Assembly (NCBI GenBank): GCA_035490055.1
Contig: DATHIB010000164.1
Coordinates: forward strand, 29,380 to 93,379
Source: Candidatus Limnocylindria bacterium
GTDB taxonomy: Bacteria; Acidobacteriota; Terriglobia; Acidiferrales; UBA7541
Reading direction: 5' to 3'
DNA: 64,000 nucleotides
The notes beneath the pieces were generated by a model that saw nothing but the letters and a program-made list of their open reading frames with translations, had not been told where the DNA came from and ran no database searches. The translations under genes and the position numbers were made by a program. Below are positions 43,061 to 64,000 of the stretch, one piece after another (the stretch's first letter is position 1; each line of letters starts with the position of its first letter).

Positions 43061-43167
43061 TTTGGTTTTAAAGAAGGAAAGCTGCCGATGATAATTCAAC
43101 GCGCACACCGGGCAATCGAACAAGGAGAATGCACGCGCCCTCCTGCCAGAATGATCAAGGGACTCGC

Positions 43168-45587: not shown

Positions 45588-45590
45588 GCC

Positions 45591-46553
45591 ATGGACTTGA
45601 CGGTCATCATCTGCACCTGGAATCGCTCGAAGTCCCTTGCTGTCGCTTTGAATAGTCTCAAGGCTTCCGTTGTGCCCGAAGGGCTCGAATGGGAAGTGCT
45701 GGTCGTTGACAACAATTCGAAGGACGATACCCGTGCGGTTTGTGAATCCTTTATCGCGAAAAACTCGCACCGGTTCCGGTACTTTTTTCATGGCACGCAG
45801 GGCAAGACCAACGCCTTGAATGCCGGCATTCGGGAAGCCCGCAGCGAGATTCTCGCTCTGACGGATGACGATCTGACCGTCGATCATCACTGGGTCGCCG
45901 AAATGTACGATGCGTTCCAGAAATATGATTGCGCGGCGGTTGGCGGAAAAATCATCCCTGTGTGGAGCTGCAAGAAGCCTTCCTGGATTGTCTTCGACGG
46001 TCCCTACCGTCACCCTGCCTACGGTGGGATCGTGAATTTTGACAAGGGCGATGTGCCGTGCCAACTCACGGCGACGGCGATCGGCGCAAACATGGGCCTT
46101 CGCAAATCCATTTTTAAAAAGTATGGTCCCTACCGGACCGACCTCAACCGAATCAATGACCTGTTGGGTGGAGAGGACACTGAGTATTGCCGGAGACTTA
46201 TGCACGCGGGCGAACGCCTGATGTACGCTTCCAAGGCTGTGGTTTACCACCCGGTGGAAGAGTACCGCACCACGCGAAAGTATTTTCGGTCCATGGCGTT
46301 TCACTATGGCCGGTGGTCTATTCTCGTCGAGGGAGTTCCGGACGGCGCGAAATGCTATTTCGGCGTTCCGCGTTACCTGTTCCCGATCGCTCTGCGGTTT
46401 CTCGGGAAGTGGATGTTTTCGCTGGGGGAGCAACGCCGTTCTTTTTACAGGCTGGAGTTATTTCAGACCTTTGGGAGAATGGCCGAAAGCAAGAAATGGT
46501 TGCGGAATCGTCAAATGCAACAACACCTTCAGGGACTCCATCCGGCAAAATGA
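45591..46553 (+). CDS. Glycosyltransferase family 2
   Basis: VIICTWNRS, VVDNNSKD, LTDDD, GGEDTE. Confidence 0.9.
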   Translation: MDLTVIICTWNRSKSLAVALNSLKASVVPEGLEWEVLVVDNNSKDDTRAVCESFIAKNSHRFRYFFHGTQGKTNALNAGIREARSEILALTDDDLTVDHHWVAEMYDAFQKYDCAAVGGKIIPVWSCKKPSWIVFDGPYRHPAYGGIVNFDKGDVPCQLTATAIGANMGLRKSIFKKYGPYRTDLNRINDLLGGEDTEYCRRLMHAGERLMYASKAVVYHPVEEYRTTRKYFRSMAFHYGRWSILVEGVPDGAKCYFGVPRYLFPIALRFLGKWMFSLGEQRRSFYRLELFQTFGRMAESKKWLRNRQMQQHLQGLHPAK

Positions 46554-46615
46554 TTGTAGCAAGCGAAAGAACAGGGAAAGGCGAAAGTCAGCACCACGAT
46601 TCGCAAAGTTTCAGG

Positions 46616-47515
46616 ATGAAGCTCAGCATCATCATCGCCAGCTACAATCGAGCCGATAGCTTGCTCAAGTTTCTGCGCGGACTTTCGCATCAGGTTGTGC
46701 CGGACGGCGTGGATTGGGAGGTTGTGATCGTCGATAACAATTCCTCGGACGGGACAAAAAGTGCGATTGTGCCGTTCGTCCAAGAAACCCCGCCACGATG
46801 CATTTACCTGCTGGAAAGCCGGCAAGGAAAGTCAATCGCGCTCAATGCCGGGCTTCGCGCAGCCACCGGCGAAATTCTGGTTTTTACCGATGACGATTGC
46901 ATACCCGATCCGAAGTGGCTGGCCACGATTGCGCGGGAATTCGCCTCCGACCCCTCCCTGGGCGTGCTCGGAGGGAGAGTCGAGCTTTTTGATAAACAAG
47001 ATCGGCCCATAACCATCCGGAGCTTCCCCGAGAGGACGCCCATTGAATCGCGCGATCAGCTTTTCTTGTTCCTGATTGGCGCCAACATGTCGATTCGCCG
47101 GAAGATTTTTGATGTGGTGGGAGATTTCGATCCCTTCCTTGGTCCTGGATCAAGAATCGGCGCGGTGATGGAAGATCTCGATTTTCTCTATCGAGTCTTC
47201 CGGGAAAAATTCAAGATCATCTATTCGCCCGACGTCCTTGTCTATCACAATCATGGGCGAACCACCGACGCTCAAATTCAGGCTCTGAATCACCGGTACG
47301 TTGTGGGCCGCGGGGCGTTCTACTGCAAGCACATCCTGGGAGGCGACCGGAAAGTACTCAAAATGGCCTACTGGGAGGTCTCCTCTTTAACCAAAGGCAT
47401 GCTGAAGGATTTTTTCGCAGGCAGGAAGTTCCGGGAGCAGCGCAGCCTTCTCTGGGCACTATTGGTGGGCGCCGGTGGCCGTCTCGCGTGGAATCCCAAG
47501 GTCCGCCGGATTTGA
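46616..47515 (+). CDS. Glycosyltransferase family 2
   Basis: MKLSIIIASYNR, IVDNNSSD, FTDDD, EDLDF. Start at ATG 46616; the 46187 extension overlaps the previous gene. Confidence 0.9.
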   Translation: MKLSIIIASYNRADSLLKFLRGLSHQVVPDGVDWEVVIVDNNSSDGTKSAIVPFVQETPPRCIYLLESRQGKSIALNAGLRAATGEILVFTDDDCIPDPKWLATIAREFASDPSLGVLGGRVELFDKQDRPITIRSFPERTPIESRDQLFLFLIGANMSIRRKIFDVVGDFDPFLGPGSRIGAVMEDLDFLYRVFREKFKIIYSPDVLVYHNHGRTTDAQIQALNHRYVVGRGAFYCKHILGGDRKVLKMAYWEVSSLTKGMLKDFFAGRKFREQRSLLWALLVGAGGRLAWNPKVRRI

Positions 47516-47563
47516 ACGCTCTTCTTTTTTTAAGGACGATGAGAGGAAGGATCGCGAGATAGG

Positions 47564-48835
47564 ATGATCTCCATGCAGGTTGACGTAGCTCCTCCAAAAA
47601 AAACGGCCAGCAAGCCCGTGCTGGAAGACGTCGGCATCCTTGCGCTTGTTCCTGATCACTGGAACCCGCGCTGGATGGTGCGCCATCACATCATGGCGCG
47701 CCTGGCGAGCTACTTTCATATGGTCTGGGTAAATCCCGCGCACCACTGGCGGGATACTCTCAAGAGCCGGCCAGAACCATCACAAACATCCGGCATGGCC
47801 CAATATCCGGGGTTTGCCGAATATACTCCGGAATTCTGGCTTCCGGACTTCTACCGGCCAGCCTGGCTGGCGCGATTTACGTTGCAGCAGCGCCTCTTGC
47901 AGGCTAGCCGCATCCTTCGGGACCGTGGCTGCCAGAAGATCATTCTCTATCTCTGGCGTCCCGAATTTGAACCCGTCCTTCGGATGATTCCTTTCGATCT
48001 GAGCTGTTATCACCTCGAAGATGAATATTCTTTTTCGCGCGTGGAGTGCCCCATAGATCCTGTCGAAGCCCGATTGCTCGCTGCCGTGGATCACGTATTC
48101 ATCCTTTCACCTGCTCTCTACGAGAAAAAGGGAAAAATCAATCCACAAACCACCTATCTTCCCGGCGGCGTTGATTTTGAAGCCTATTCGCGGCCGTTCG
48201 ACGAACCCAAGGATCTTGCGCCCATTCCTCATCCCCGCGTCGGGTACGTGGGATCCCTCAAATGGCAAATCGATTGGGACCTGCTTCTCAAGCTGACTTG
48301 CGAGCATCCGGAATGGTCATTCGTGTTGGTGGGACCCGCAAGCCCGCATCCGGAAATTGACGGCGCTCTTCAGGAACTCATGGGACGCCGCAACGTTCAT
48401 TTCCTCGGAGGAAAGCCTTCAGCTGAGATGATGGCGTACCCGCAGCATTTCGATGTGTGCATCATGCCTTACGGGGATAATGACTACACCAAGTACATTT
48501 ATCCGCTCAAATTGCATGAATATCTGGCGAGCGGCAAGCCACTCGTGGGAACGCCAATCGCGTCGCTCGCGACCCTTGGGGACATCGTGTTGCTTCCAAG
48601 AAGCGCCGAACAATGGTCCTCCATGCTCGCACAAGCCCTAAGCCGGGCGGAAAACACGGAAGAGCGGCGCGTAGCCAGGCAGAATTTCGCGCGGCAGCAT
48701 GATTGGTCGAATCTCACGCGGCAGATCGCCGGCACAATGGCCCGGCGGCTCGGCCCTGCGTGCTCCGCTCGCGTTGAACGTCATTTTCAAGAGAGTACTG
48801 GAAAGACGGTCCCGGAAGAGACTGTCCAGTTGTGA
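47564..48835 (+). CDS. GT-B glycosyltransferase (TuaH-like)
   Basis: GGVDFEAY, GYVGSLKWQID, IYPLKLHEYLASGKP. Confidence 0.85.
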   Translation: MISMQVDVAPPKKTASKPVLEDVGILALVPDHWNPRWMVRHHIMARLASYFHMVWVNPAHHWRDTLKSRPEPSQTSGMAQYPGFAEYTPEFWLPDFYRPAWLARFTLQQRLLQASRILRDRGCQKIILYLWRPEFEPVLRMIPFDLSCYHLEDEYSFSRVECPIDPVEARLLAAVDHVFILSPALYEKKGKINPQTTYLPGGVDFEAYSRPFDEPKDLAPIPHPRVGYVGSLKWQIDWDLLLKLTCEHPEWSFVLVGPASPHPEIDGALQELMGRRNVHFLGGKPSAEMMAYPQHFDVCIMPYGDNDYTKYIYPLKLHEYLASGKPLVGTPIASLATLGDIVLLPRSAEQWSSMLAQALSRAENTEERRVARQNFARQHDWSNLTRQIAGTMARRLGPACSARVERHFQESTGKTVPEETVQL

Positions 48836-48901
48836 ATTGCCCTCTCTCTGGCTCTTTTACGACCGCGACCCTTTGACCCAAGGAAAGAGAGACAAACGGA
48901 A

Positions 48902-49957
48902 ATGGGACGATCAATCCCCGATCAGGAGCTCAACCTTCAGGCGGGAGAACTCGTCGAGGTTCGCTCTGAGGACGAAATCCTCGCGACACTGGACGATAAC
49001 GGCAGGCTCAATGCAATGCCGTTCATGCCGGAGATGCTCAAATATTGCGGGAAACGCTTTCGAGTCTATAAAATCGCGCATAAGACGTGCGACAACATCC
49101 AGCCCTGGAACATGCGGCAAGTGAAAAACGCTGTGCACCTGACGGGTGTGCGCTGCGACGGGAGAGCTCACGGGGACTGCGACGCCGGCTGCTTGATTTT
49201 TTGGAATGCGGCCTGGCTCAAGAGAGCCGTGGCGCCGTTCACGCAAGAGTCGCAGCTTGGTGAATGTGGTTCGTCCTTACAAAAGAGCCCTGTGGACCTG
49301 AAATCAGGAGCATCTATTCAAACCCCCGGAGTCCTGCTGAGAGGGAGCCGCGGGGGAACGGATCCAGCTACTGCAGAAGCAATCTATTCTTGCCAAGCGA
49401 CGAATCTAAGGGAGTTTACTTCGGATCTCCCCTGGTGGAATTTATGGCAATACATCAGGGATATTCGCTCCGGAAACTTGCACCGGGGATTGGGCGATTC
49501 CAAGGGCGAGAAGCTGTTGGAGACGTTGCTCGGTATTGTGGACGTGTTTCGCACTATCCTGATCGAAGTTTTCAACAAGTTTCAGTCCGTTCGCAAGGGT
49601 GTGCAGTATCCTCACATCCAGGCATTGCCTGCCGCCTCTCCGGCTGGTGAGTTGAAACTCCAGCCTGGCGAATTTGTCCAAGTAAGATCAAGGCAGGAAA
49701 TATTCGCCACCCTAGACCAAAAGAATCGCAACCGCGGCCTTTTGTTCGATTCTGAAATGCTCAAGTATTGCGGGGGGACGTATCGCGTTGCAAGACGCGT
49801 AAATCAGATCGTGGACGAAAAGAATGGCAAGATGCTCCGGATGAAGTCCTCTTGCATCATCTTGGATGGTTCCGCGTGCGCCGCCGATTACCACCGGCTG
49901 TGCCCAAGAGCGATTTACCATTACTGGAGAGAGGGATGGCTTCGTCGCGCGGACTGA
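48902..49957 (+). CDS. Hypothetical protein with two tandem Cys-rich SH3-like domains
   Basis: Internal duplication: LQAGELVEVRS..ILATLD..EMLKYCG..W..AWLKR and LQPGEFVQVRS..IFATLD..EMLKYCG..WREGWLRR. Confidence 0.8.
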   Translation: MGRSIPDQELNLQAGELVEVRSEDEILATLDDNGRLNAMPFMPEMLKYCGKRFRVYKIAHKTCDNIQPWNMRQVKNAVHLTGVRCDGRAHGDCDAGCLIFWNAAWLKRAVAPFTQESQLGECGSSLQKSPVDLKSGASIQTPGVLLRGSRGGTDPATAEAIYSCQATNLREFTSDLPWWNLWQYIRDIRSGNLHRGLGDSKGEKLLETLLGIVDVFRTILIEVFNKFQSVRKGVQYPHIQALPAASPAGELKLQPGEFVQVRSRQEIFATLDQKNRNRGLLFDSEMLKYCGGTYRVARRVNQIVDEKNGKMLRMKSSCIILDGSACAADYHRLCPRAIYHYWREGWLRRAD

Positions 49958-50662: not shown

Positions 50663-50678
50663 TGGAAGGCGGGGTGCT
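50663..50678 (+). promoter_or_regulatory. sigma54-type box for the giant IPT protein
   Basis: TGGAAGGCGGGGTGCT. Confidence 0.5.
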
Positions 50679-50909
50679 TTGTCATTCTGCACTACTTAAC
50701 GGTTGGAGGTCTGTCGTTAGGGCACGAAACCAGGTCTTGAGCGGTAGCTGTATAGCAAGAGGGGAACCCAGCAGCCAGCAGGCGTGTCGCGATTCTGGAT
50801 GCGGCCGTACTTGCCAACCGTTGGTTCAGCCAAAGCTTCCTTACTCGCTCGTTGGCAGTCTTATTTACCGGAAAATTTTATTTGCTGCGTCTCCCGCGGA
50901 GGATGCTTC

Positions 50910-53900
50910 ATGTTGATTTGCTCGCGTCGTCACAATGGATCGACGCTTCAGGTTCGGCTCGCCCGATCGCTCGCGCTGCTCGTTCTCCTACTCGCGGCCG
51001 CTTCGGGACAGGCGCTGGCTGCCTCTGTCGCCTTCGTGCAGAGCAACTCCGCGACACCTCAGTCGCCGCAGGCAACGGTAACGGTCACTTACGCCGCAGC
51101 TCAGACGCTCGGAAATTTGAACGTCGTTGTCGTCGGCTGGAATGACTCGATTTCAACTCTCAGTTCCGTGACCGATTCACTTGGCAACGCGTACGTTCTG
51201 GCAGCTGGTCCGCTCGTACAGACTGGAACTGCTTCGCAGGCCATCTATTACGCAAAGAACATCTCCGCGGCCGCAGCGAGTGCGAACAGTGTCACCGTGA
51301 CCTTCAGCGTCGCAGCAGCTTTCCCGGACATTCGCATCGCAGAGTACGGCGGCTTGGATACCGTAAATCCTCTGGACGTTTCTGCCGGCGCGCAGGGCAC
51401 TACGACGTCAACGAGCAGTAGCGGATCAGTGACCACTAGCAGCGCGAACGATCTGCTCGTTGGTGCGAACCTGGTTCAGTCGACCACTACGGGAGCGGGA
51501 GCTGGTTATACCAGCCGGGGCATCACTGGCGATGGCGACATTCTTGAAGATCGCATCGTGACCGTGACCGGCAGTTACAACGCCACTGCCGCCCTGGACA
51601 AAGTCCAGTCGTGGATCATGCAGATGGTGGCCTTCCGCGCGGCTGGAGGCAGCACTCCCGCACCGTCCATTACCAATCTGAGTCCGACCACCGGGCCCGT
51701 CGGTACCTCTGTCACCATCGCGGGTGTAAATTTCGGCGCTTCCCAAGGAAGTAGCACGGTCACCTTTAACGGCACAGCAGCGACACCGACGGCATGGGGC
51801 GCCACGAGCATCACGGCTCCGGTTCCCACAGGTGCGACGACCGGCAACGTTGTGGTCACCGTAAGTGCGCAACCCAGCAACGGAGTGAACTTCACGGTTG
51901 GCGCAGGCTCTCCTATCGTCTTCATACAAGCCAATTCTGCGAGCCCACAGGCAACGCAAACGCCCGTGACGGTCACCTATACCGGCGCCCAGACAGCGGG
52001 CAATCTGAACGTCGTGATCGTCAGCTGGAATGATTCGACGGCGACCATCAGCTCCGTAACGGACTCCATCGGCAATACCTACGCCGTGGCGGCGGCTCCG
52101 GTTGTGCAAAGTGCTACGGCTTCGCAGGCCATCTACTACGGAAAGAATATCGCGGCGGCTGCGGCCGGCGCGAACACCGTGACCGTGACCTTCAACGTCG
52201 CCGCGCGCCACCCTGACATCCGCATCGCCGAATACAGCGGCGTCGACCCGTTAAATCCGCTGGATGCTTCGGTGGGCGCACAAGGAAATACGGCGACGAG
52301 CGACAGCGGCCCAGTCTCAACGACAAACGCAAACGACATTCTCATCGGCGCGAACGTTGTGCAGGCGACCTCAACAGGTCCGGGAACTGGATATAGCAGC
52401 CGCGGAATCACTGTGGACGGCGACATTCTCGAAGACCAAGTCGTCTCCGTGACGGGGAGCTATAGCGCCACCGCTACTTTGGACAAAGTGCAGCTTTGGA
52501 TCATGCAGATGGCCGCCTTCCGTGCCGCCACGAGCGGCGGCAGTCCGGCGCCGAACATCGCTAGCCTGAATCCAACGACGGGACCAGCAGGCACGTCAGT
52601 AACAATCACGGGCTCCAATTTTGGAACGTCGCAGGGGACAAGCATCGTCAACTTCAACGGGACGACCGCAACACCCACCAACTGGTCCGCTAACAGCATT
52701 GTGGTCGCGGTTCCCGCCGGCGCAACTTCCGGCAATTTGGTTGTAACTGCAGGAGGCGTGGCCAGCAATGGTGTGACCTTCACTGTCATTTCCACACCCA
52801 GTATTTCAAGTCTCAACCCCTCATCGGGTCCGGTGGGCGCCTCTGTCACAATCACCGGCGCAAACTTCGGCGCCAGCCAGGGAACCAGCACCGTTACGTT
52901 TAACGGGACCCCGGCGTCTCCAACGAGCTGGACGGCGACCAGCATCACTGTTCCCGTGCCGACGGGAGCCACCACGGGCAATGTCATTGTCACCGTCGGT
53001 GGACTACCCAGCAACGGGCTCAGCTTCATCGTCATGCCGATTCCGACAATCACCAGTCTGAATCCGGCTTCCGGCGCTATTGGCGCATCGGTCACAATCG
53101 CGGGCGCCAATTTCGGTGCTTCTCAGGGCACCAGCGCCGTAACGTTTAGCGGAATCGCCTCGACGCCCACGAGCTGGAGCGCTACCAGCATTGCGGCTCC
53201 CGTGCCGAACGGCGCAACGACCGGCAATGTCTTGGTGACCGTCAACGGCTTGGCGAGCAACGGTGTCTCCTTCTCCGTGACTTCGACCGCTCCCAGCATC
53301 ACCAGCCTCAATCCGACCTCTGGACCGATCGGCACCTCCGTTACGATTGCAGGCGTGAACTTCGGAGCCAGTCAGGGAACAAGCACAATCACGTTCAATG
53401 GGACCACTGCAACACCGACGAGTTGGAGCGCCACCAGCATCGCTGTGCCAGTGCCTACGGGCGCCACCACGGGCAATATAGTTGTCACTGTCGGAGGTCA
53501 GGTCAGCAATGGCCTAAACTTCACGGTCACAATTCCCGCGCCAAGCATCACCAGCCTCAACCCTGCGTCAGGAGTTGTAGGTACTTCCGTTACCATCGCG
53601 GGCACAAACTTTGGCGCAAGCCAAGGCACCGGCACCATCACATTTAATGGAACGGCGGGAACTCCCGCAGCATGGAGCGCCACCGGCATCACCGTCCCAG
53701 TGCCCACCGGCGCCACCACCGGCAATATCGTGGTCACCGCTGGCGGCGTCGCCAGCAACGGCATCAACTTCACCGTCACTACTCCACCAAGCATCACCAG
53801 CCTCACTCCAGCTTCTGGTCCCGTGGGGACATCGGTCACCGTTGCGGGCGCCAATTTTGGACCGACGCAGGGCACCAGCACGGTCACCTTCAACGGCATC

Positions 53901-56900
53901 TCTGCCACTCCCACAAGCTGGGGCGCGAGCGGCATCGTCGTTCCGGTTCCGGCCGCCGCAACAACAGGCAATGTTGTCGTGGCGGTCGGAGGTCAAGCCA
54001 GCAATGGCTCGAACTTCACGGTGACCACGTCAACTGCGGGGATCGCAGTCGTCCAGCATCGAAGCAAGGATGCCGGCGTCACCGCTTCTTCGACCCTGGC
54101 GTTTAATTCGACCAATTCCGTCGGGAACTGGATCGCCGTAGTCATTCGCGCGGGCAAGACAGGGCAAGTCTTGACGGTCTCAGACACGCGCGGAAATACC
54201 TACCGCAAAGCGATCCAATTTAACGTCACCACGGACACCCCGAACGGCGACACGCTCGGAATTTTCTACGCTGAAAATATCGCCGGCGGAGCGAACACGG
54301 TTACGGTAGCGGAGAGCATTAATGGCAATACCTTGCGGTTCGCCATACTCGAGTACTCGGGTGTTGCGCTCGCCAATTCGCTCGACGTGGTTTCCACCGC
54401 GCAAGGAACGAGCGCGACCGCCAATGGCGGCAGCGTGCTCACGACTGCCAATGGCGACCTGCTGCTCGGCGCGGTCCTGACGGGCAATCCCGCGACCTTC
54501 ACCGCGGCAACCGGCTATGCGATCGAAGAGAGAGTTCCCGCATCTCCGAACACCAAATTGGCCGCAGAAGACCAGATTCAGGCGACTGCCGGAACCGTTT
54601 CTGCGGGCGTCACGCTGGGCTCATCCGATAGCTGGGGTGCCGGACTGGCCGCGTTCAAGGCCGTCAGCGGCGGCGGGACCACCGGCCCATCAATCACGAG
54701 CTTGAATCCAACTTCGGGTGTCGTCGGCACATCCATAACCATCATGGGCGCAAACTTTGGCGCCAGCCAAAGCACCAGCACCGTGGCCTTCAACGGGACT
54801 GCCGCGACTCCCACAAGCTGGAGCGCGACGAGCATCGCCGTTCCGGTTCCGACGGGCGCGACCACCGGCAACGTCCTCGTAACAGTTGGCGGCGTGGCCA
54901 GCAACGGAGTCACGTTCAACGTCACCGTACCGCCGCCGAGCATCACGAGTCTAAATCCCACGTCGGGTCTAGTAGGGGCGTCCGTCACGATCACGGGCAC
55001 AAATTTCGGTGCTTCGCAAGGCACCAGCACGGTGAAGTTCAACGGGACCTCGGCTTCACCCACCAGTTGGAGCGCAACGAGTATCGCTGTGCTTGTTCCC
55101 ACAAGCGCCACGACCGGCAATGTCGTAGTGACCGTGGGCGGAGCGTCGAGCAACGCAGTCAATTTTACTGTCCTCGTTCCACCGAGCGTCACCAGTTTGA
55201 CCCCGAATTCGGGAATGGTCGGGACATCCGTGACCGTCGCGGGGGCGAACTTTGGAACGGCGCAGGGAACTAGCGCACTTACATTCAATGGGACTGCGGC
55301 GACACCGACAAGCTGGAGCGCGACCAGCATCGCGGTGTCCGTGCCTACTGGAGCGACGACTGGCAATGTTGTCGTCACTGTCGGCAGTTTGGCGAGCAAT
55401 GGTGTGAACTTCACAGTCGTTGTTCCGCCAAGCATCACCAGCTTGACTCCTAATTCCGGAACGGCCGGGACGTCTGTGACACTCGCCGGGGCAAATTTCG
55501 GCGCAACTCAGGGAACCAGCACGGTGACGTTCAACGGCATCGCCGCGACTCCTACAAGCTGGAGCGCGACGACCATTGCCGCCCTGGTTCCGAACGGCGC
55601 GACCACTGGCAACGTCATCGTGACGGTCAACGGTGTCGCCAGTAACGGCGTATCGTTCACGGTCACTTCGCCGGGTCCGAGTCTCACCTCGCTTGGCTTA
55701 ACCCAGGGTCCCGTGGGAGCGACCGTGACGATCACCGGTACGAACTTCGGCGCGACTCAGGGCACCAGCACTGTCACGTTTAATGGCGCCGCGGGAACAC
55801 CTTCCAACTGGACCGCCACGGGTATTGACGTGCCGGTTCCGACTGGCGCAACGACGGGAAATGTTGTCGTTACCGTTGGCGGCGTGGCCAGCAACGGACT
55901 GCCTTTCACGGTTACACCGCCCCCGAACATTTCGAGCATTAGTCCGCTATCGGGGCCAATCGGTGCTGTCGTCGCCATCAACGGCACGAACTTTGGACCC
56001 ACGGTCGGTACAAGAGTGAGCGGCGTGACGTTCAACGGCGTTGCCGCAAGAACGAACAGCTGGAATGACACGCAGATTCTCGTACCCGTGCCCGCAGGCG
56101 CGACCACTGGAAACGTGATCGTTTCGATCAGCGGTGTTGCCAGCAACGGCGTTCTCTTCACCGTCACGGCGGCCCCGGCGATCACAACAGTGGGCCCGAC
56201 AGGCGGACCCGTCGGCACATCGGTCACCATCAGCGGTACCAGCTTCGGCTCAAGTCAGGGCACCAGTACGATTACATTTAACGGCACGACCGCGACACCC
56301 ACGAGTTGGAGCGACACCAGCATCGTGGCGCCGGTTCCAACGGGCGCAGCAACCGGCAACGTCGTCGTATCCGTCGGCGGAGTCGCCAGCAATGGTGTCG
56401 CCTTCATCGTGACCGCAGGGTCGGGGACCATCAAGCTGGTTCAACACACCGGCAAAGACGCGGGCACCACCAACTCTTCTTCTTTGGCGTTCACTTCGAA
56501 TAACACTGCAGGAAACTTTATCGCCGTGGTCATCCGCGCCGGCAAATCAGGCCAAGTGCTAAACGTTTCGGACTCTCACGGGAACACTTATAAACAAGCA
56601 GTCCTTCTCAATATGACCCTAGATGGCGAAACGAACGCTGTCTACTATGCCGAGAACATTGCCGGTGGTGCGAACACCGTCACCGTCTCCGATAACATCT
56701 CGGCCGCAACGCTGCGCTTCTCCATCATGGAATACTCAGGAGTGGCACTGACCAACTCTCTAGATAACGCCTCTGCGGCAGAGGGCACGGGTACGGCGCC
56801 GAGCACGGCAAATGCTCCCACGTCGTGGGGCGGCGATTTGCTCCTTGGCGAAATCGTCACCGCAAATCCCGCCGCCTACACAGCCGGCGCCGGTTACAAG

Positions 56901-59135
56901 ATCGAAGATTTTGTTCCCGCGGAACCCAACACCAAGTTGATCGGCGAAGACCAGATCCAAACTACTGCCGGAAACGCCTCAGCGAACGCAACGATCGGCG
57001 CCTCCGACAATTGGGGGGCGGTTTTCGCGGCGTTCAAATCGGCCAATGGCATTCCGGCTCAACCCATCAGCGTTAGCATCTTACCCGTCAGCGCCAGTGT
57101 TCCAGCGACCTTTGGGACGCAGGTATTCACGGCGCAGCTGACCAACGATGTCCAAAACAAGGGCGTGACGTGGTCGATCTCCGGCACCGGTTGCAGTGGA
57201 AGCACGTGCGGCACGCTGACAAACGCAACCTCGACGTCCGTGACTTACAACGGGCCCTCAGCTATACCGAACCCAGCCACCGTCACACTTAAGGGCACTT
57301 CTCTCTCGGACAACACCAAATCGAGCACCGCGACGATCACTGTCGTCCAAGGCCTGCTCACCGTTTTCGTCAGTCCGAAGCGCGGCTCGATTACCACTTC
57401 TCAGGCGCAGCAATTTATGCCCACTGTCTTCAACGACCCGAATAACGCTGGCGTAACCTGGCAAGTAGATGGCAGCACAGGCGGCAATAGCACCACCGGC
57501 TCCATTAGCACATCGGGTCTCTTCACGCCGGGGACACAGCCAGGAGTGCATACCATTACGGCGGTGAGCGTCACAAACGCTTCGGTGACTGCTTCGGTGA
57601 CCTTTGCCGTCAGCGACATCGCGGGTGTTTTCATGCACCACAACGACGTCGCTCGCACCGGTCAAAACTTGAAAGAGTATGCATTGACGACCTCCAACGT
57701 CAATTCGTCTACGTTCAAGCAGCTCTTCTCTTGCCCGGTGGACGGTCAGATCTACGCCCAACCGCTCTACATGGCCAACCTGTTGGTCGGCTCCACCACG
57801 CGCAACGTCGTGTTTGTCGCCACGGAGCACGATAGCGTCTACGCCTTCGACGCTGATTCCCCCTCTTGCGTACAGCTCTGGAAGACCAGCTTTCTAGCGA
57901 CCGGGGTCACCACTATGTCTTGGCTCGATACTAGTCCTACTTACCCCACCAACGACGTATTCCCCGAGATCGGCATCACATCAACGCCGGTCATTGACAC
58001 GGCGACGAACACTATCTATATCGAGGCCAAGACGAAGGAATCGGTGGGCACAGGTTGTTCCACGAGCTCTCCTTGCTACGTTCACCGCTTGCATGCCCTG
58101 AACATCACCACGGGCGCAGAAAGATTTGGGGGCCCCGTTGTAATCTCGGATCCAAACTTTGTCTCGTTGCGCCATTTCAACAGGCCTGGTCTGCTATTGG
58201 CCAATGGCACCGTTTACATCGGCTTCGGATCACACGGCGATATATCAAACTGGCAGGGTTGGGTGTTTGGCTATGACCCAGCCACCCTGGCGCAGAAGTT
58301 CGTGTTCTCAACCTCGGATCCCAGGAGTGGGAGCAACGGCGCGTCCGTTTGGGATGCCGGCGCAGGTCCCGCTGCCGATGCGAGCGGTAACATCTACGTC
58401 ACGACCGGCAACGGCTCCTATGATGGTACGAAGAATTTCTCCGAGTCGGTATTGAAGCTTAGCCCCTCGGGAGCGTTGCTCGATTGGTTCACTCCGTTTA
58501 ACCGCAGCGTTCTCGACGCCAATGACGTTGACATGGGCTCCGCAGGCATCGTGGTTCTGCCCGACTCTGTCGGTTCCGCAACCCACCAACATTTGGTCCT
58601 CGCTACTGGCAAGATTGCCATTCTTTACCTGCTGGATCAGATCAGCTTGGGCAAGTTCAATTCCGGGAGCAACCAGGACGTGCAGGAAGTAATTCCTGTT
58701 CCTCCTCCCAACACCACGCAACTGGATGGCGGTATCTACGGCCTGCCAGCCTATTGGAACGGAAACATATACGTGACGGGACAGAACTTCCCATTGAGCC
58801 AATTCACGATCGCGAATGGCGCCATGTCCACAACGCAATCTGCCGTTTCGAGCAACACGTTCCCGCCGCGAGGCGCGATACCTGCCGTCTCCGCTAATGG
58901 GAATACCAATGGCATCGTTTGGATCCTGGATCTGAGCGCCTGGCCGTCAAACGGCGCGGCCGTCCTGTACGCTTACGATGCAACCAATGTCGCCAACTTG
59001 CTCTACAGCAGTCCTGCAAGCGGGACTGGCGCTGCCGGGGCCGCCGTAAAATTCACCGTGCCGACTGTCGCCAACGGCAAGGTTTACGTTGGCGGACAGA
59101 CTTCGTTCACTGTTTTCGGTCTGCTGCCGAACTAA
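50910..59135 (+). CDS. Giant secreted surface protein: 4 uncharacterised ~200-aa beta domains, 14 IPT/TIG repeats, 2 Ig-like domains, C-terminal PQQ-like beta-propeller
   Basis: GGAGGA RBS before ATG 50910, signal peptide ending GQALA, repeats PSITSLNP..G..GTSVTI.G.NFG, C-terminal HNDVARTGQN...PTVANGKVYVG. No PEP-CTERM or LPxTG tail. Confidence 0.9.
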   Translation: MLICSRRHNGSTLQVRLARSLALLVLLLAAASGQALAASVAFVQSNSATPQSPQATVTVTYAAAQTLGNLNVVVVGWNDSISTLSSVTDSLGNAYVLAAGPLVQTGTASQAIYYAKNISAAAASANSVTVTFSVAAAFPDIRIAEYGGLDTVNPLDVSAGAQGTTTSTSSSGSVTTSSANDLLVGANLVQSTTTGAGAGYTSRGITGDGDILEDRIVTVTGSYNATAALDKVQSWIMQMVAFRAAGGSTPAPSITNLSPTTGPVGTSVTIAGVNFGASQGSSTVTFNGTAATPTAWGATSITAPVPTGATTGNVVVTVSAQPSNGVNFTVGAGSPIVFIQANSASPQATQTPVTVTYTGAQTAGNLNVVIVSWNDSTATISSVTDSIGNTYAVAAAPVVQSATASQAIYYGKNIAAAAAGANTVTVTFNVAARHPDIRIAEYSGVDPLNPLDASVGAQGNTATSDSGPVSTTNANDILIGANVVQATSTGPGTGYSSRGITVDGDILEDQVVSVTGSYSATATLDKVQLWIMQMAAFRAATSGGSPAPNIASLNPTTGPAGTSVTITGSNFGTSQGTSIVNFNGTTATPTNWSANSIVVAVPAGATSGNLVVTAGGVASNGVTFTVISTPSISSLNPSSGPVGASVTITGANFGASQGTSTVTFNGTPASPTSWTATSITVPVPTGATTGNVIVTVGGLPSNGLSFIVMPIPTITSLNPASGAIGASVTIAGANFGASQGTSAVTFSGIASTPTSWSATSIAAPVPNGATTGNVLVTVNGLASNGVSFSVTSTAPSITSLNPTSGPIGTSVTIAGVNFGASQGTSTITFNGTTATPTSWSATSIAVPVPTGATTGNIVVTVGGQVSNGLNFTVTIPAPSITSLNPASGVVGTSVTIAGTNFGASQGTGTITFNGTAGTPAAWSATGITVPVPTGATTGNIVVTAGGVASNGINFTVTTPPSITSLTPASGPVGTSVTVAGANFGPTQGTSTVTFNGISATPTSWGASGIVVPVPAAATTGNVVVAVGGQASNGSNFTVTTSTAGIAVVQHRSKDAGVTASSTLAFNSTNSVGNWIAVVIRAGKTGQVLTVSDTRGNTYRKAIQFNVTTDTPNGDTLGIFYAENIAGGANTVTVAESINGNTLRFAILEYSGVALANSLDVVSTAQGTSATANGGSVLTTANGDLLLGAVLTGNPATFTAATGYAIEERVPASPNTKLAAEDQIQATAGTVSAGVTLGSSDSWGAGLAAFKAVSGGGTTGPSITSLNPTSGVVGTSITIMGANFGASQSTSTVAFNGTAATPTSWSATSIAVPVPTGATTGNVLVTVGGVASNGVTFNVTVPPPSITSLNPTSGLVGASVTITGTNFGASQGTSTVKFNGTSASPTSWSATSIAVLVPTSATTGNVVVTVGGASSNAVNFTVLVPPSVTSLTPNSGMVGTSVTVAGANFGTAQGTSALTFNGTAATPTSWSATSIAVSVPTGATTGNVVVTVGSLASNGVNFTVVVPPSITSLTPNSGTAGTSVTLAGANFGATQGTSTVTFNGIAATPTSWSATTIAALVPNGATTGNVIVTVNGVASNGVSFTVTSPGPSLTSLGLTQGPVGATVTITGTNFGATQGTSTVTFNGAAGTPSNWTATGIDVPVPTGATTGNVVVTVGGVASNGLPFTVTPPPNISSISPLSGPIGAVVAINGTNFGPTVGTRVSGVTFNGVAARTNSWNDTQILVPVPAGATTGNVIVSISGVASNGVLFTVTAAPAITTVGPTGGPVGTSVTISGTSFGSSQGTSTITFNGTTATPTSWSDTSIVAPVPTGAATGNVVVSVGGVASNGVAFIVTAGSGTIKLVQHTGKDAGTTNSSSLAFTSNNTAGNFIAVVIRAGKSGQVLNVSDSHGNTYKQAVLLNMTLDGETNAVYYAENIAGGANTVTVSDNISAATLRFSIMEYSGVALTNSLDNASAAEGTGTAPSTANAPTSWGGDLLLGEIVTANPAAYTAGAGYKIEDFVPAEPNTKLIGEDQIQTTAGNASANATIGASDNWGAVFAAFKSANGIPAQPISVSILPVSASVPATFGTQVFTAQLTNDVQNKGVTWSISGTGCSGSTCGTLTNATSTSVTYNGPSAIPNPATVTLKGTSLSDNTKSSTATITVVQGLLTVFVSPKRGSITTSQAQQFMPTVFNDPNNAGVTWQVDGSTGGNSTTGSISTSGLFTPGTQPGVHTITAVSVTNASVTASVTFAVSDIAGVFMHHNDVARTGQNLKEYALTTSNVNSSTFKQLFSCPVDGQIYAQPLYMANLLVGSTTRNVVFVATEHDSVYAFDADSPSCVQLWKTSFLATGVTTMSWLDTSPTYPTNDVFPEIGITSTPVIDTATNTIYIEAKTKESVGTGCSTSSPCYVHRLHALNITTGAERFGGPVVISDPNFVSLRHFNRPGLLLANGTVYIGFGSHGDISNWQGWVFGYDPATLAQKFVFSTSDPRSGSNGASVWDAGAGPAADASGNIYVTTGNGSYDGTKNFSESVLKLSPSGALLDWFTPFNRSVLDANDVDMGSAGIVVLPDSVGSATHQHLVLATGKIAILYLLDQISLGKFNSGSNQDVQEVIPVPPPNTTQLDGGIYGLPAYWNGNIYVTGQNFPLSQFTIANGAMSTTQSAVSSNTFPPRGAIPAVSANGNTNGIVWILDLSAWPSNGAAVLYAYDATNVANLLYSSPASGTGAAGAAVKFTVPTVANGKVYVGGQTSFTVFGLLPN
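51657..56414 (+). repeat. 14 diverged IPT/TIG repeats (~245 bp) in blocks of 1, 6 and 7
   Basis: Counted by hand from the translation; blocks at ~51657-51902, ~52545-54026 and ~54678-56414. Confidence 0.85.
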
Positions 59136-59140
59136 CTAGA

Positions 59141-59174
59141 TCGAAAGCGCAGTCCGCAAGGATTGCGGTTTCGG
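59141..59174 (+). terminator. GNRA-capped hairpin after the giant IPT gene (terminator or processing stem)
   Basis: TCGAAA-G-CGCAGTCC-GCAA-GGATTGCG-G-TTTCGG; only a short U-tract. Confidence 0.45.
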
Positions 59175-59302
59175 AACTGCTCGCAAGTGCTGATGTGCGG
59201 CTACCTTTCAGCCGAGGTTTCTTCCGCTTGCCCAGAGATTGGTGCCTGCGAACGGCTTAAACGGCTTTTATGATCGAACGCTACAGGCCGAAAGGATTTC
59301 CC

Positions 59303-62300
59303 ATGACCCCAGCGAGCAGACGCCGACTCGTTGCACTAGCACTCTTAACGTGCTCGCTATCCTCAATTCTCCTGGCTCCGCAGGCCGCTGGGCAGGCGAG
59401 CGTCCAGGGTCAATGGCAGACCTTGGTGACTCTGGCGCCGATTAATCCCGTTCACCTAGCGCTGATGCACAACGGGAAGATCCTATTCGCTACAGGGTCA
59501 GGAAACGACAAGACCGTTACGTTCTTTCAGGGGGGGGTCTTCGACCCGGTCACGGACACAACGACGACCCAGCCACTGACATGGGATCTGTTTTGCAACG
59601 GAATGGTGGTCTTGCCTGACGGTCGGCCATTCATCATGGGTGGCACGATCAATTACAACCCTTTCCAAGGCTCGAATCGCACCACTGCCTTTGATCCCGC
59701 CAGCGGAAACTTTGTTGATCTCCAATCGATGGCCCACGGTCGATGGTACCCAACGAGCACGGTGCTTCCGGACGGTCGCGTCATGGTGTTCTCTGGTTTG
59801 ACGGAAACCGGGGGTACGAATGTCGCAGTCGAGATCTACAAGGTCGGCGCCGGATGGAGCCAGCAGTACATGGCGCCGTTCACACCTCCTCTCTATCCCC
59901 GAATGCACGTGCTTCCGAATGGCAAAGTGTTTTTCTCGGGCTCGACCGCCCAGTCGTGGACCTTCGATCCCTCCAACCAAAGCTGGACCGCCGGCCCCAC
60001 CACGAACTATGGCAACACCCGAACCTACGGGTCTTCCGTTCTTCTTCCATTGACGCCCGCAAACGGCTACAACCCGAAAGTTCTGATCTTAGGAGGGGCT
60101 AGCCCTTCAACCGCAACAACGGAGCTGATCGATCTTTCCGCGGCCAGCCCAAAGTGGGTGAACGGCCCCAGCATGGTTCAGCCTCGCATCGAGATGAACG
60201 CGACCATCTTGCCAAATGGAAAGATTCTGACCTCGGGCGGCTCCCAGATTGATGAAGATGGCACAACTGCCAGTCTCAAGGCGGAGTTGTACGACCCAAC
60301 TGCCGGCGCTACCGGCGCATTCACTTCGGCCGGCTCAAATACCTACCCCCGTCTCTATCATTCCAACACCATCTTATTGCCTGATGCGACCGTGCTCATG
60401 GCAGGCAGCAATCCACGTCAGGGAGCCTACGACCCGCACATGGAAATTTACTCGCCTCCCTATCTGTTCAATTCGAACGGAACGCTGGCGACCCGGCCGA
60501 CAATTGCGAGCGTGACTCCTGGTGTGATTGGCTACAACGGCGCCTTCCAAGTGCAAACCCCCGATGCTGCAAATATCACCTCCGCTGTTTTGATCCGCGC
60601 CGGAGCCGTTACTCATTCCTTCGACATGGATCAACGGCTTGTCGGGTTGGTATTCACCGCGGGAAGTGGCGTGCTCAATCTCACATCGCCGCCGAATTCC
60701 AATATCGCGCCTCCAGGCTATTACCTGCTTTTCATTCTCAATTCTTCCGGCGTGCCTTCGGGCGCTCAATTCGTCCAGCTCTCCTTAACCCCCACGGACC
60801 TGTCGCCGACGGGGACGATTGTTACTCCCACTTCGAACGTGGCGATTGGCCCTGGACAGTCGGTTTCTTTCTCTGGAACAGGAAGCGACCCCGATGGCAC
60901 AGTTGCTGCATATAACTGGGTGTTTCCGAGCGGAAGTCCGAGCTCGAGTTCGTCGCAAAATCCCGGCTCGGTTAGCTTTGCGAATCCCGGTACCTACATC
61001 GCATCCCTTACGGTGACGGACAATGTTGGTCTGACGGATCCAAGTCCTGCGACACGCACAATCACCGTTACGCCGGATTTCTCTCTGACTTTTTCGCCGG
61101 CGACGCAAACTGTGGTCGCTGGCAACGGCACGAGCTACACCATCAACGTTGTTCCCGGTCCCAATTTCACCGGTTCCGTCAGTTTCTCGGCTTCGGGCCT
61201 TCCTTCCGGTGCCTCTGCCACTTTCAACCCTGCGACCGTCACTACCTCCGGTTCGACGACGATGACGGTATCGACGTCCGCGGGCACGCCGATCGGCAAT
61301 TCCAACCTGACTGTGACGGGAACGAGCGGTGCGTCAAGTCATTCGGTAACCCCCGTGCTTTCGGTGATCGTTTCGGCGGACACCATTCCGCCGACCGCGC
61401 CAACGAACCTGACGGCGACCGCATCATCCAATCTGCAGATCAACCTGTCCTGGACGGCAGCGACCGACAACGTCGGAGTGACCGGAAACAAAGTGGAACG
61501 CTGCCAGGGGGCGGGTTGTACCAATTTCGGGCAGATCACGACGCTGGGAGCAGTCACAAGCTACACCGACACGAGCTTGCAGCCCTCGACGTCCTACAGC
61601 TACCGCATCAGGGCCAATGACGCCGCCGGAAACATCGGTGCGTATTCGAATGTCGCCAGCGCAACGACGCCCGCGGCTCCCCCTCCGCCGATCAAGTTTG
61701 TGCAGCAAGTGGCATTGACGACGGGCTCCGGCGTCAGCACCGCCTCGCAAACTTTTACTATCCCGAGCGTCAGCGGTGACCTCATCGTTGTTGGCGTCAA
61801 GTGGGGCAACCAGGCCATATCCGTTGCCTCTATCGGGGACGACAAGGGCAACAACTACACCAACGCCGTCGGCCCCACCAACTGGAGTGGCACGGCGAAA
61901 CGCGCCCAGATCTTCTACGCCAAGAACATCATCGGCGGCGGTGCCCCGATCACCATCACGGTGACATTGACCGGAATCGCCACCAGTTCTTTCTACATTT
62001 ATCAGCTTGAATATTCGAACGCGGATATCAACGCGCCTCTCGATGTGGTCTCCGCCGCGATCGGCACGTCCACTTTCGTCAGTAGCGGATCCGCCACGAC
62101 CAATTTCCCGAACGAATTGATATTTGGCTTTTCCATTGCGGATTCTGTGGGGATAAACCCGGGACCGGGATTCACCGCCGAGTCCACGTTCCGCGGAAAC
62201 CTGGTCGAAGACATGACCGTCAGCACCACCGGATCTTACGCGGCACTCGGCACGGAGACCGGCGTCTCCAACTGGTTCATGCTGATGGCTGCGTTCAAGG

Positions 62301-64000
62301 CCGCCAACGCCGACACGACTCCACCGACCACGCCTTCCGGCTTGACAGCGCTCGCAACCGGCCCAACCCAGGTCAATCTCTCCTGGACCGCCTCGACCGA
62401 CAACGTTGGAGTCTCGGGCTACGTTGTGCAGCGTTGTTCGGGCTCGGGCTGCACGAATTTCGCTCAAGTAGCTTCTTTGCCGGGCAACACAACCGCGTAC
62501 GACGACACCAGCCTGGCGCCTTCCACAACCTACACCTATCAAATCGTTTCCACGGACGCAGCGGTCAATCTCAGTCTGCCTTCGAATCCAGCGAGCGCCA
62601 CGACGCAGGCAGACACCACTCCGCCGACCGCGCCAACCAACCTCGCCGCCACGGTCGCCGGCAACACTCAAATTAATTTGTCTTGGACGGCCTCGACGGA
62701 CAACGTTGGCGTCACCAACTACCTGATTCAGCGCTGCGCAACGCCCGGATGCTCAAATTTCGCTCAGATTGGAACCACCGGTGGTCCGGGAACAACCTAC
62801 AACGATGCGGCTGCTTCGGCCTCCACCAGCTACACCTATCAAGTGATCGCCACGGATGCGGCTGGTAATCCCGGCTTGCCCTCGAATACTGCCACGGCCG
62901 TCACCATGGGACCGCCAGCCACGCCTTCTGCTTTGACAGCTACTGCGGCCTCGGCTACGCAAATCAACCTCTCGTGGACCAACGACGCCATCAATCAATC
63001 TGGTTTTAAGGTGGAACGTTCGCCGGACAACGTTACATTTACCCAGATCGGCACAACCAGCGCCACCGCCTACTCGGATCCAAATTTGGCGCCGAAGATC
63101 CTCTACTATTACCGCGTTCGGGCCACGAACGCCTCCGGAGACTCCGGCTACTCCAATGTTTCCAGCGCCACAACGCTGCCAGACACGACCCCACCAACCG
63201 CGCCATCCAATCTGACGGCGACTGCCGCCAGCAGCACGCAAATTAATCTTTCCTGGACAGCCTCGACGGACAATGTCGGCGTGACCGGATACCAGATCCA
63301 ACGCTGCCAGGGTGTGAGCTGCACCACCTTGTCGCAAATCGCAGCACCCACGGGAACCGGCACAACTTATGTCGACACCGGCCTTTCACCTTCGACGAGT
63401 TATAGCTATGAAATCATTGCCGCGGACGCCGCGGGGAATCAGAGCCTGCCATCCAACCTTGGAACGGCAACGACGCTTGCCGGTCCGCCTGCCATACCTT
63501 CCAATTTGACCGCGACCGCTGCCGGTGCGACGCAGATCAATCTTTTGTGGACTAACAACGCCACCAATCAAACCGGGTTCAAGGTTGAACGCTCGCCGGA
63601 CAATGTGACCTTCACGCAAATTGCCACGACCGGCGCAACGATTACAACGTATTCCGACAGTCCTCTCGCACCCGTGACCCTTTACTACTATCGTGTGCGG
63701 GCCACCAACGGCTCAGGTGACTCGACCTATTCAAACCTGGCCAGCTCCACCACGCTTGCGGATACAACGCCGCCAACGGCCCCAACAAACTTGACGGCGA
63801 CGGCCACGAGCAGTTCGCAGAACGATCTTTCCTGGACCGCCTCGACGGACAACGTCGGCGTCACCGGTTATAAGATTCAGCGCTGTCAGGGGACGGGATG
63901 CACCACCTTTGCGCAGATTGCCACGCCGCCGGGAACAGGCACAACCTTCAGTGACACTGGTCTCTCTCCATCCACCAGCTACAGCTACGAGATCATCGCT
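59303..64000 (+). CDS. 3'-truncated giant secreted copper-radical oxidase (galactose/glyoxal oxidase, AA5-like) with DUF1929, PKD, Ig-like, one ~200-aa beta domain and >=7 FN3 repeats
   Basis: Hand-translated, open from ATG 59303 (AAAGGA RBS) to the window end (1566 codons). Signal peptide. Kelch repeats with DLFC (Cys 59594), RWYP (Tyr 59747), RLYHS (60356-60361) and VTHS (His 60614). Confidence 0.92.
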   Translation, partial: MTPASRRRLVALALLTCSLSSILLAPQAAGQASVQGQWQTLVTLAPINPVHLALMHNGKILFATGSGNDKTVTFFQGGVFDPVTDTTTTQPLTWDLFCNGMVVLPDGRPFIMGGTINYNPFQGSNRTTAFDPASGNFVDLQSMAHGRWYPTSTVLPDGRVMVFSGLTETGGTNVAVEIYKVGAGWSQQYMAPFTPPLYPRMHVLPNGKVFFSGSTAQSWTFDPSNQSWTAGPTTNYGNTRTYGSSVLLPLTPANGYNPKVLILGGASPSTATTELIDLSAASPKWVNGPSMVQPRIEMNATILPNGKILTSGGSQIDEDGTTASLKAELYDPTAGATGAFTSAGSNTYPRLYHSNTILLPDATVLMAGSNPRQGAYDPHMEIYSPPYLFNSNGTLATRPTIASVTPGVIGYNGAFQVQTPDAANITSAVLIRAGAVTHSFDMDQRLVGLVFTAGSGVLNLTSPPNSNIAPPGYYLLFILNSSGVPSGAQFVQLSLTPTDLSPTGTIVTPTSNVAIGPGQSVSFSGTGSDPDGTVAAYNWVFPSGSPSSSSSQNPGSVSFANPGTYIASLTVTDNVGLTDPSPATRTITVTPDFSLTFSPATQTVVAGNGTSYTINVVPGPNFTGSVSFSASGLPSGASATFNPATVTTSGSTTMTVSTSAGTPIGNSNLTVTGTSGASSHSVTPVLSVIVSADTIPPTAPTNLTATASSNLQINLSWTAATDNVGVTGNKVERCQGAGCTNFGQITTLGAVTSYTDTSLQPSTSYSYRIRANDAAGNIGAYSNVASATTPAAPPPPIKFVQQVALTTGSGVSTASQTFTIPSVSGDLIVVGVKWGNQAISVASIGDDKGNNYTNAVGPTNWSGTAKRAQIFYAKNIIGGGAPITITVTLTGIATSSFYIYQLEYSNADINAPLDVVSAAIGTSTFVSSGSATTNFPNELIFGFSIADSVGINPGPGFTAESTFRGNLVEDMTVSTTGSYAALGTETGVSNWFMLMAAFKAANADTTPPTTPSGLTALATGPTQVNLSWTASTDNVGVSGYVVQRCSGSGCTNFAQVASLPGNTTAYDDTSLAPSTTYTYQIVSTDAAVNLSLPSNPASATTQADTTPPTAPTNLAATVAGNTQINLSWTASTDNVGVTNYLIQRCATPGCSNFAQIGTTGGPGTTYNDAAASASTSYTYQVIATDAAGNPGLPSNTATAVTMGPPATPSALTATAASATQINLSWTNDAINQSGFKVERSPDNVTFTQIGTTSATAYSDPNLAPKILYYYRVRATNASGDSGYSNVSSATTLPDTTPPTAPSNLTATAASSTQINLSWTASTDNVGVTGYQIQRCQGVSCTTLSQIAAPTGTGTTYVDTGLSPSTSYSYEIIAADAAGNQSLPSNLGTATTLAGPPAIPSNLTATAAGATQINLLWTNNATNQTGFKVERSPDNVTFTQIATTGATITTYSDSPLAPVTLYYYRVRATNGSGDSTYSNLASSTTLADTTPPTAPTNLTATATSSSQNDLSWTASTDNVGVTGYKIQRCQGTGCTTFAQIATPPGTGTTFSDTGLSPSTSYSYEIIA
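61380..64000 (+). repeat. Seven fibronectin type III repeats of two subtypes
   Basis: Type A: DTTPPTAP.NL...WTASTDNVGV...RCxGxGC. Type B: PP..PS.L...WTN...GFKVERSPDNVTF. Order A,(insert),A,A,B,A,B,A. Confidence 0.88.

Follow-up and report, generated by a model that had tools for sequence, protein, structure and literature searches.

A 64,000-nt stretch of DNA from a genome labelled Candidatus Limnocylindria bacterium (GenBank assembly GCA_035490055.1, contig DATHIB010000164.1, positions 29,380 to 93,379; G000:C164:29380-93379), referred to here as the window, ends inside the gene for a giant protein (the CRO giant). With a probability put at about 0.6, this protein is a modular copper-radical oxidase (CRO) that an Acidiferrales-like acidobacterium exports by the Sec route, with the polysaccharide of an adjacent gene cassette as its most likely substrate. 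The sequence gives good support to the predicted product being a functional, exported CRO with a long stalk. To our knowledge, bacterial CROs are almost unstudied beyond GlxA of Streptomyces and one actinobacterial galactose oxidase. The gene lies in the window as follows.

59303..64000, plus strand: 5′ 79 % of the CRO giant gene (full gene, G000:C164:88682-94651)

The frame proved genuine. When open reading frames (ORFs) were listed with open ends allowed, a single 3′-open, stop-free frame of 1577 codons was found at 59270..64000 on the plus strand. An earlier reading of the window from its letters alone (the sequence-only reading) had described an uninterrupted frame of 1566 codons missing from the ORF track; this matches exactly from the ATG at 59303 to the window end, and the frame is indeed absent from the track because it overruns that end. 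Extension of the contig, a check which that reading had proposed, placed the stop at C164:94651, 1.27 kb past the window, and the complete protein has 2000 aa from M1 (ATG at 59270, from which residues are numbered here) or 1989 aa from M12 (ATG at 59303). M12 is the likely start codon, since AAAGGA lies 8 nt upstream and orthologues begin MxxAS... at the equivalent Met. The public gene call (P0154) gives a 1948-aa product with a shortened N-terminus that would delete the signal peptide. The strength of the matches to Pfam GO-like_E_set (E 3e-26), to fn3 (E 3e-55) and to the PDB entry for Streptomyces lividans GlxA (4unm; E 7e-59) argues that the frame is not a chance feature. An assembly artefact born of repeats was also considered and rejected: Tandem Repeats Finder found nothing, the 579-nt units of the stalk are merely 67-78 % identical to each other, and orthologues of 1606, 1798 and 1991 aa are present in independent assemblies.

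The catalytic head (residues 44-503) has the following parts.

59399..60484, plus strand: seven-bladed Kelch propeller, residues 44-405, with C109, W159-Y160 and Y363-H364
59594..59596, plus strand: codon of Cys109, the thioether partner
59744..59749, plus strand: codons of Trp159-Tyr160, equivalent to GlxA W288-Y289
60356..60361, plus strand: codons of Tyr363-His364, the axial Tyr and a His ligand
60494..60778, plus strand: GO-like E-set domain, residues 409-503, with the codon of the ligand His449 at 60614-60616

Alignment and modelling showed residues 44-503 to have the predicted fold of an AA5-type CRO (galactose/glyoxal oxidase superfamily) together with a complete set of first-sphere residues. 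Pfam recognised Glyoxal_oxid_N (PF07250) at residues 91-276 with 47 bits against a cut-off of 37.5, and GO-like_E_set (PF09118) at residues 409-503 with 92 bits; the latter is a DUF1929-type domain that follows the Kelch propeller, as in AA5-type CROs. GlxA was the best PDB match of the head, followed by fungal alcohol, galactose and glyoxal oxidases at E values of ~1e-33 to 1e-27. An AlphaFold2 model of the head (pTM 0.85, pLDDT 75.5) was superimposed by Foldseek on every solved CRO with template modelling (TM) scores of 0.82-0.84, GlxA ranking first (TM 0.84). Residue equivalences were taken from HMMER alignments to GlxA 4unm and to the alcohol oxidase 6ryw, and the codons were verified; the 4unm chain index plus 30 gives the published numbering of GlxA C121, W288 and Y289. 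In GlxA and in galactose oxidase (GalOx) respectively, C109 corresponds to C121 and C228, Y160 to Y289 and Y272, Y363-H364 to Y501-H502 and Y495-H496, and H449 to H589 and H581, so that all the Cys-Tyr cofactor and copper-ligand residues named in the sequence-only reading could be aligned. C109 is the sole Cys of the mature head.

The same reading had placed Leu or Thr at the position of the stacking Trp290 of GalOx. That much stood, as the position aligns with L177/T178 in the motif SGLTET, but a stacking Trp is not lost. W159 directly precedes Y160, the same placing as that of W288 before Y289 in GlxA, whose Trp stacks on the Tyr ligand (PMC11611005), indicating that the second-sphere aromatic is present in the GlxA arrangement. 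The bulk of the CRO giant consists of adhesin-like repeats, which would suit a non-catalytic adhesin that has merely retained a Kelch propeller. Against this, six active-site positions are essentially invariant among 213 aligned heads of 40-95 % identity (C109, Y160, H364 and H449 in 212, Y363 in 210 and W159 in 208), making such an adhesin highly improbable.

The alignment of the head to GlxA is split, residues 46-135 pairing with 4unm chain positions 23-117 and residues 129-503 with 228-613. The ~110 GlxA residues skipped (chain ~118-227, about GlxA 148-257) are domain 2, which in GlxA is inserted in the propeller and caps and shields the copper site (PMC11611005). As judged from this alignment the head is of the minimal two-domain type, like CgrAlcOx, and its copper site is probably more open than that of GlxA.

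The head is preceded by a signal peptide and followed by a stalk.

59303..59398, plus strand: Sec-type signal peptide, M12-A43, with A-x-A before S/N-VQGQW conserved among orthologues
60836..61066, plus strand: PKD domain, residues 523-599, by Pfam
61076..61384, plus strand: Ig-like beta-sandwich, residues ~603-705, by sequence pattern alone, w/o Pfam match
61388..61684, plus strand: FN3 domain no. 1, type A, with a CxxxxC pair
61703..62287, plus strand: module X copy 1, residues 812-1006
62303..64000, plus strand: FN3 array; over its whole length in the complete protein it has eight FN3 domains, ordered A A B A B A B A
L002:6068-6649, beyond the window: module X copy 2, residues 1807-2000, the C-terminus

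The PKD/Ig/FN3 stalk that had been described behind the head was borne out, with a total of nine FN3 domains and with two copies of a further module, X. Tat (twin-arginine) export of the CRO giant was considered, as its own copy has SRRRL; Sec was preferred since the twin Arg is not kept in orthologues. Each FN3-A domain has a CxxxxC pair, which fits an oxidising compartment. The unit of the FN3 array is a 579-nt B-A pair, and the divergence between units noted above argues against the array being an assembly artefact. Stalk length among orthologues was seen to step by one B-A pair (193 aa), giving classes of ~1600, 1798 and 1990 aa (window 62303-64000, L002:3600-6100).

Module X has 195 aa, and the two copies in the CRO giant are 56 % identical to each other. 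It gave no Pfam hit and no PDB sequence hit. The AlphaFold2 model was confident (pLDDT 87.6) and all-beta, and Foldseek found no significant neighbour for it in the PDB (best E 0.011, TM ≤0.36). Invariant residues include D46, Y52, Y72, E103, D114 and E169, and the module is commonly paired and often placed at the extreme C-terminus. A six-frame hidden Markov model search of the whole genome found it in two giant proteins alone, with two copies in the CRO giant and four in the TIG giant encoded immediately upstream. A role exclusive to CROs was rejected: since the module is found in same-genus genomes w/o a CRO head, it is a lineage-specific module of giant surface proteins rather than an oxidase accessory as such.

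Established CRO chemistry and this anatomy suggest how the protein might work. On binding copper, Cys109 and Tyr160 would self-process to the thioether radical cofactor, and outside the cytoplasm the enzyme would turn a primary alcohol into an aldehyde, or an aldehyde hydrate into an acid, as O2 is reduced to H2O2. The ~11 beta-sandwich domains (PKD, Ig and nine FN3, with disulfide pairs) could form a rod of tens of nm, and the two X modules, shared with the TIG giant alone, may give the two giants a common ligand or matrix as their target. The aldehyde might then be cross-linked, oxidised further or transaminated by the Tat-exported partner that is usual in the family and is described below.

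The neighbourhood of the gene bears on the substrate. Its main features are listed first.

960-34537 (1-34.5 kb): exosortase-A/PEP-CTERM-type exopolysaccharide (EPS) locus
35-50 kb: sugar-nucleotide tailoring and ABC-transporter cassette, also with short-chain dehydrogenase/reductase, DUF4910, C-methyltransferase and NTP-transferase genes
41562..49957, plus strand: glycan cassette of PIG-L, Wzm, Wzt, three GT2 and one GT4 glycosyltransferases and U351
50910..59135, plus strand: TIG giant, 2783 aa, with 14 IPT/TIG repeats and four X copies
51039-51647, 51927-52532, 54054-54668 and 56442-57047: X copies of the TIG giant (residues 86-288, 382-583, 1091-1295 and 1887-2088 of the frame that opens at 50784)

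After the cassette the gene order is TIG giant, CRO giant and then a convergent metH. For the TIG giant, read as the partner scaffold of the CRO giant, the ATG at 50910 is a more probable start than 50784, judging from GGAGGA upstream and from an N-terminus the same as that of P0194 (below). Its C-terminal ~430-580 aa (57399-59132) have a propeller-like look; the last 578 aa gave no PDB sequence hit, and the ~430-580-aa end gave no Pfam match either. The product of U351 (351 aa, w/o family match; 48902-49957) travels with the cassette and lies beside CRO homologues in L011, L071 and L077.

The sequence-only reading had set the oxidase at a glycan locus, and it does lie at the 3′ end of one. 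Close relatives, L003 (head 90 % identical) and L004/5 (79 %), keep both the TIG giant-CRO-metH order and the linkage to the glycan locus. In P0194 (L011:10001-16045, 2014 aa) a signal, X and TIG are followed by a CRO head at residues 654-1128 and then by X and TIG again; its N-terminal X and TIG part is 77 % identical to the TIG giant. The gene stands directly behind an orthologous cassette (PIG-L 90 %, Wzm 94 %, Wzt 86 %, GT2 64-76 % and U351 76 %, with GT4 also present), showing that a single polypeptide encoded at this locus position can unite modules of both giants. Cassette genes also stand beside CRO homologues, in varying arrangements, in at least five other genomes (L007, L011, L071, L077 and L120), those that recur being PIG-L, GT2_b, GT2_c/d, U351, NTP-transferase and C-methyltransferase. 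GlxA is required for glycan deposition (PMC11611005). Because of the recurrent synteny, the private X modules, the P0194 fusion and the GlxA precedent, the polysaccharide from the adjacent PIG-L/Wzm/Wzt/GT2 cassette is favoured as substrate in this sublineage, at somewhat less than even odds.

Across the family the linkage is a real but minority trait. The background was drawn from equal-sized random stretches of one genome, that of the window, and the loci are not phylogenetically independent. Among 17 usable genome loci, 4 had at least 3 glycan-gene hits within ±20 kb (4/17 vs 4.2 %, p 0.005). For 44 loci with full flanks and ±10 kb, the counts were 3/44 for at least 3 hits (vs 2.5 %, p 0.09) and 7/44 for at least 2 hits (vs 4.7 %, p 0.004). 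Thus the linkage that had been proposed is specific and recurrent in some genomes, and is the exception family-wide, 3/44 to 4/17 loci (7-24 %) having at least 3 glycan genes.

Several observations weigh against the cassette polysaccharide as substrate, or against the two giants working as a unit. About 75-90 % of homologue loci are free of glycan genes out to 10-20 kb, and P0169, which is 76 % identical and of the same architecture, sits among GGDEF, PilZ (cyclic di-GMP) and sigma54 regulators. A reverse-strand gene lies between the TIG giant and the CRO in L004, which means that the two need not be co-transcribed. Scanning 49800-59500 and the 3′ end of the CRO gene for promoters, terminators and intergenic hairpins gave results at or below chance, and a protein of 2000 aa would have to cross the outer membrane. 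In vitro, GlxA turns over glycolaldehyde and nothing else (PMC11611005), so that even GlxA has no established polymer substrate. The gene intervening in L004 was seen to be GH140-like (Apiosidase and Collagen_bind_2; L004:8116-9642, minus strand). Several glycan-free CRO loci are flanked by GGDEF, PilZ and sigma54-activator genes (L052:2673-9752; L009:4898-7051 and 20221-21651; L010:2567-5170), which hints at control of such loci by cyclic di-GMP and sigma54.

The head family is large, with 4546 representatives of 50 %-identity clusters at E ≤1e-30, and of the first 599 motif-matching stretches listed from species genomes, 587 encode a relative. Most of the records listed carry Acidobacteriota labels (Acidoferrum/Acidiferrales, Terriglobia, Vicinamibacterales), the minority those of other phyla. 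Heads 61-68 % identical to the present one were observed on contigs labelled Dormiibacterota, Verrucomicrobiia, Saccharimonadales, Rokuibacteriota, Betaproteobacteria and others (L067, L068, L071, L076, L084, L085, L087-L089, L100, L109, L118, L120 and L129); these may be mis-binned contigs of metagenome-assembled genomes or reflect recent transfer. Distribution is patchy (14/41 relatives; 25/401 genomes in the class as a whole), and the tails are interchangeable: FN3, PKD, TIG, legume lectin, LamG, chitobiase-C or Big_2. Such an accessory distribution, tails resembling lectins and carbohydrate-binding modules (CBMs), most loci being w/o glycan genes, and the preference of GlxA and SCO2837p for glycolaldehyde (PMC11611005) would also suit a degradative or antagonistic generator of H2O2, similar to fungal glyoxal oxidase, which oxidises small aldehydes or alcohols as its tail binds foreign plant, fungal or microbial polymers. 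This is considered unlikely, as the flanks showed no peroxidase or lytic polysaccharide monooxygenase partner, the X modules are confined to the locus's two giants, and it is a biosynthetic cassette that recurs as neighbour.

The commonest neighbour of the CRO family is a different gene. A HisC-like aminotransferase of ~380 aa adjoins the CRO in 6/10 metagenome loci and 13/20 genome loci, and, counting ±10 kb around the head, it is present in 58/75 species-genome loci, or 36/44 if those with full flanks are taken alone. The two genes mostly run in the same direction and usually abut. Unbiased clustering of all neighbours identified it as the sole widely shared family, with 53 loci vs 10 for the runner-up. 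Examples are given below.

L004:15019-16149: transaminase, lying between CRO and metH (as in L055)
L006:14486-15619, minus strand: transaminase
L007:8410-9585: transaminase
L009:8581-9783: transaminase
L010:14748-15965: transaminase
L053:14055-15197: transaminase
C147:10148-11290 (L054): the one, unlinked copy in the window's own genome

A canonical twin-arginine signal (e.g. MSITRRxLL) is present in 55/64 CRO-adjacent copies and in the own-genome copy. The proteins match PRK09105 and PtaA, with 237-254 bits for NCBIfam PtaA, below its cut-off of 500. PtaA of Pseudomonas is exported by Tat with its pyridoxal phosphate (PLP), is present in species that make no pyoverdine, and recycles pyridoxamine phosphate (PMP) in the periplasm by a route that is unexplained (PMC6206403). 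The CRO neighbours share with it the Tat signal and the HisC-like PLP fold, and differ in the sub-cut-off score, the lack of pyoverdine context, the pairing with a CRO and the loss of the catalytic Lys in a third of members. That Schiff-base Lys, of the motif RTFSK, is present in 36/56 transaminases including the own-genome copy and is A, T, G, S, E, V, M or N in 20/56; the other PLP-binding residues are invariant. The Lys-less copies were those of L010, L060, L061, L062, L064, L065, L074, L076, L077, L082, L089, L093, L100, L102, L104, L107, L110, L112, L116 and L124, and 9 of the 20 are in loci with two tandem CRO paralogues.

This family-wide partnership suggests that, outside the cytoplasm, amine chemistry acts on the aldehyde or on a 2-oxo product of its further oxidation. 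The transaminase could even be the real partner, with the CRO making or consuming a periplasmic aldehyde or 2-oxo compound that the transaminase aminates or produces; the two would form a tailoring or salvage pair not tied to glycan and merely unlinked in the window genome. The frequency, orientation and export signals of the neighbour, the retained copy on C147 and the unexplained PMP-to-PLP recycling of periplasmic PtaA-type enzymes speak for such a pair. It is nonetheless a doubtful alternative: the gene is not adjacent to the CRO in the window genome or in L003, orthologues occur in same-genus genomes w/o any CRO (G008, G012 and G022), the Schiff-base Lys is missing from 20/56, and HisC-like enzymes normally take alpha-amino or oxo acids rather than sugar aldehydes. 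A transaminase partner is also compatible with a glycan substrate, L071, L077 and L120 each holding cassette, transaminase and CRO.

Both elements can be joined in a bolder proposal, held to be improbable, in which giant CROs and Tat-exported PtaA-like partners would form an extracytoplasmic oxidase-transaminase pair. The hydroxymethyl groups of an exported glycan, here the Wzm/Wzt product, would be converted to aldehyde and then to amine, or an amine would be removed and the product oxidised, and the X modules would be a new glycan- or matrix-binding fold tethering the oxidase and the TIG scaffold to one polymer. Lys-less transaminases would be PMP carriers or regulators under this proposal. 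Nothing relevant was found in literature searches on galactose oxidase in Acidobacteria or on a CRO paired with a Tat aminotransferase.

A different amine source had been proposed in the sequence-only reading, in which glycan aldehydes form Schiff-base cross-links with amines installed by a decarboxylase cassette. The EPS locus at 1-34.5 kb does contain the exosortase-A-associated pair of decarboxylase (TIGR03099) and acyl-CoA ligase (TIGR03098), along with matches to a TIGR03097 ligase-like protein, TIGR03006 deacetylase, TIGR03015 and TIGR03108, an XrtA-associated ATPase and amidotransferases; the PEP-CTERM motif is absent from the C-terminus of either giant. The chemistry is plausible and three de-N-acetylases are present in the locus, which would be a simpler amine source than the decarboxylase. 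The tie to the decarboxylase itself did not hold, as that pair lies 54 kb upstream on the opposite strand, in a separate XrtA-type sub-locus, and is present in none of the homologous CRO loci examined. Such cross-links are accordingly conjectural and very unlikely.

Soil Acidobacteriota play a major but poorly understood part in making and degrading soil polysaccharide, and the CRO clade amounts to thousands of genes in these organisms. A stalk-mounted oxidase that ends an EPS locus offers a specific candidate for an enzyme that modifies a bacterial matrix oxidatively after export, and its uncapped GlxA-like head is a candidate biocatalyst. If functional, the pairing of CRO and exported PLP transaminase would be a natural counterpart of oxidase/transaminase biocatalysis cascades, and it may explain how the cofactor of periplasmic transaminases is recycled.

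Among known systems GlxA (SCO2837/SLI_3188, 4unm) is the nearest. It shares with the CRO giant the best sequence and fold match, the copper ligands, the Cys-Tyr pair, the Trp just before the equatorial Tyr, an extracytoplasmic location and a glycan-synthesis gene context. The CRO giant differs in having no ~110-aa domain 2 over the copper site, in its cleavable Sec signal where GlxA has an N-terminal membrane anchor, in its 1500-aa stalk, and in its neighbours, TIG giant and metH, in place of the operon cslA-glxA-cslZ. Orthology with GlxA was rejected on the missing domain 2, the different gene context and a score of 257 bits against the cut-off of 800 for the NCBIfam GlxA equivalog NF052501; no CslA-like partner adjoins the CRO giant, which qualifies the GlxA/CslA parallel drawn in the sequence-only reading.

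The fungal AA5_2 galactose 6-oxidases and alcohol oxidases (1gof, 5c92, 6ryw) have the same propeller and E-set (TM 0.82-0.84) and the five catalytic residues, the two-domain head of CgrAlcOx being the equivalent of the present head. The CRO giant is bacterial, far larger and w/o CBM32, and has Thr178 at the W290 position (Asp in most relatives); of the W290/R330 pair, the mark of galactose 6-oxidase (EC 1.1.3.9) activity (PMC11267884), the W290 half is therefore missing. The AA5_1 glyoxal oxidase 9n3u and the Pseudoarthrobacter GalOx 9g43 agree in fold (TM 0.82-0.83) and chemistry class, and differ in identity (24-26 %), in the second sphere and in having no stalk. In PorAlcOx and TrLOx, WSC domains are present (PMC11611005), and there, as proposed for the CRO giant, non-catalytic modules target a catalytic head to polymers; the modules of the CRO giant are instead PKD, FN3 and the unannotated X, on a scale ~10x that of PorAlcOx and TrLOx.

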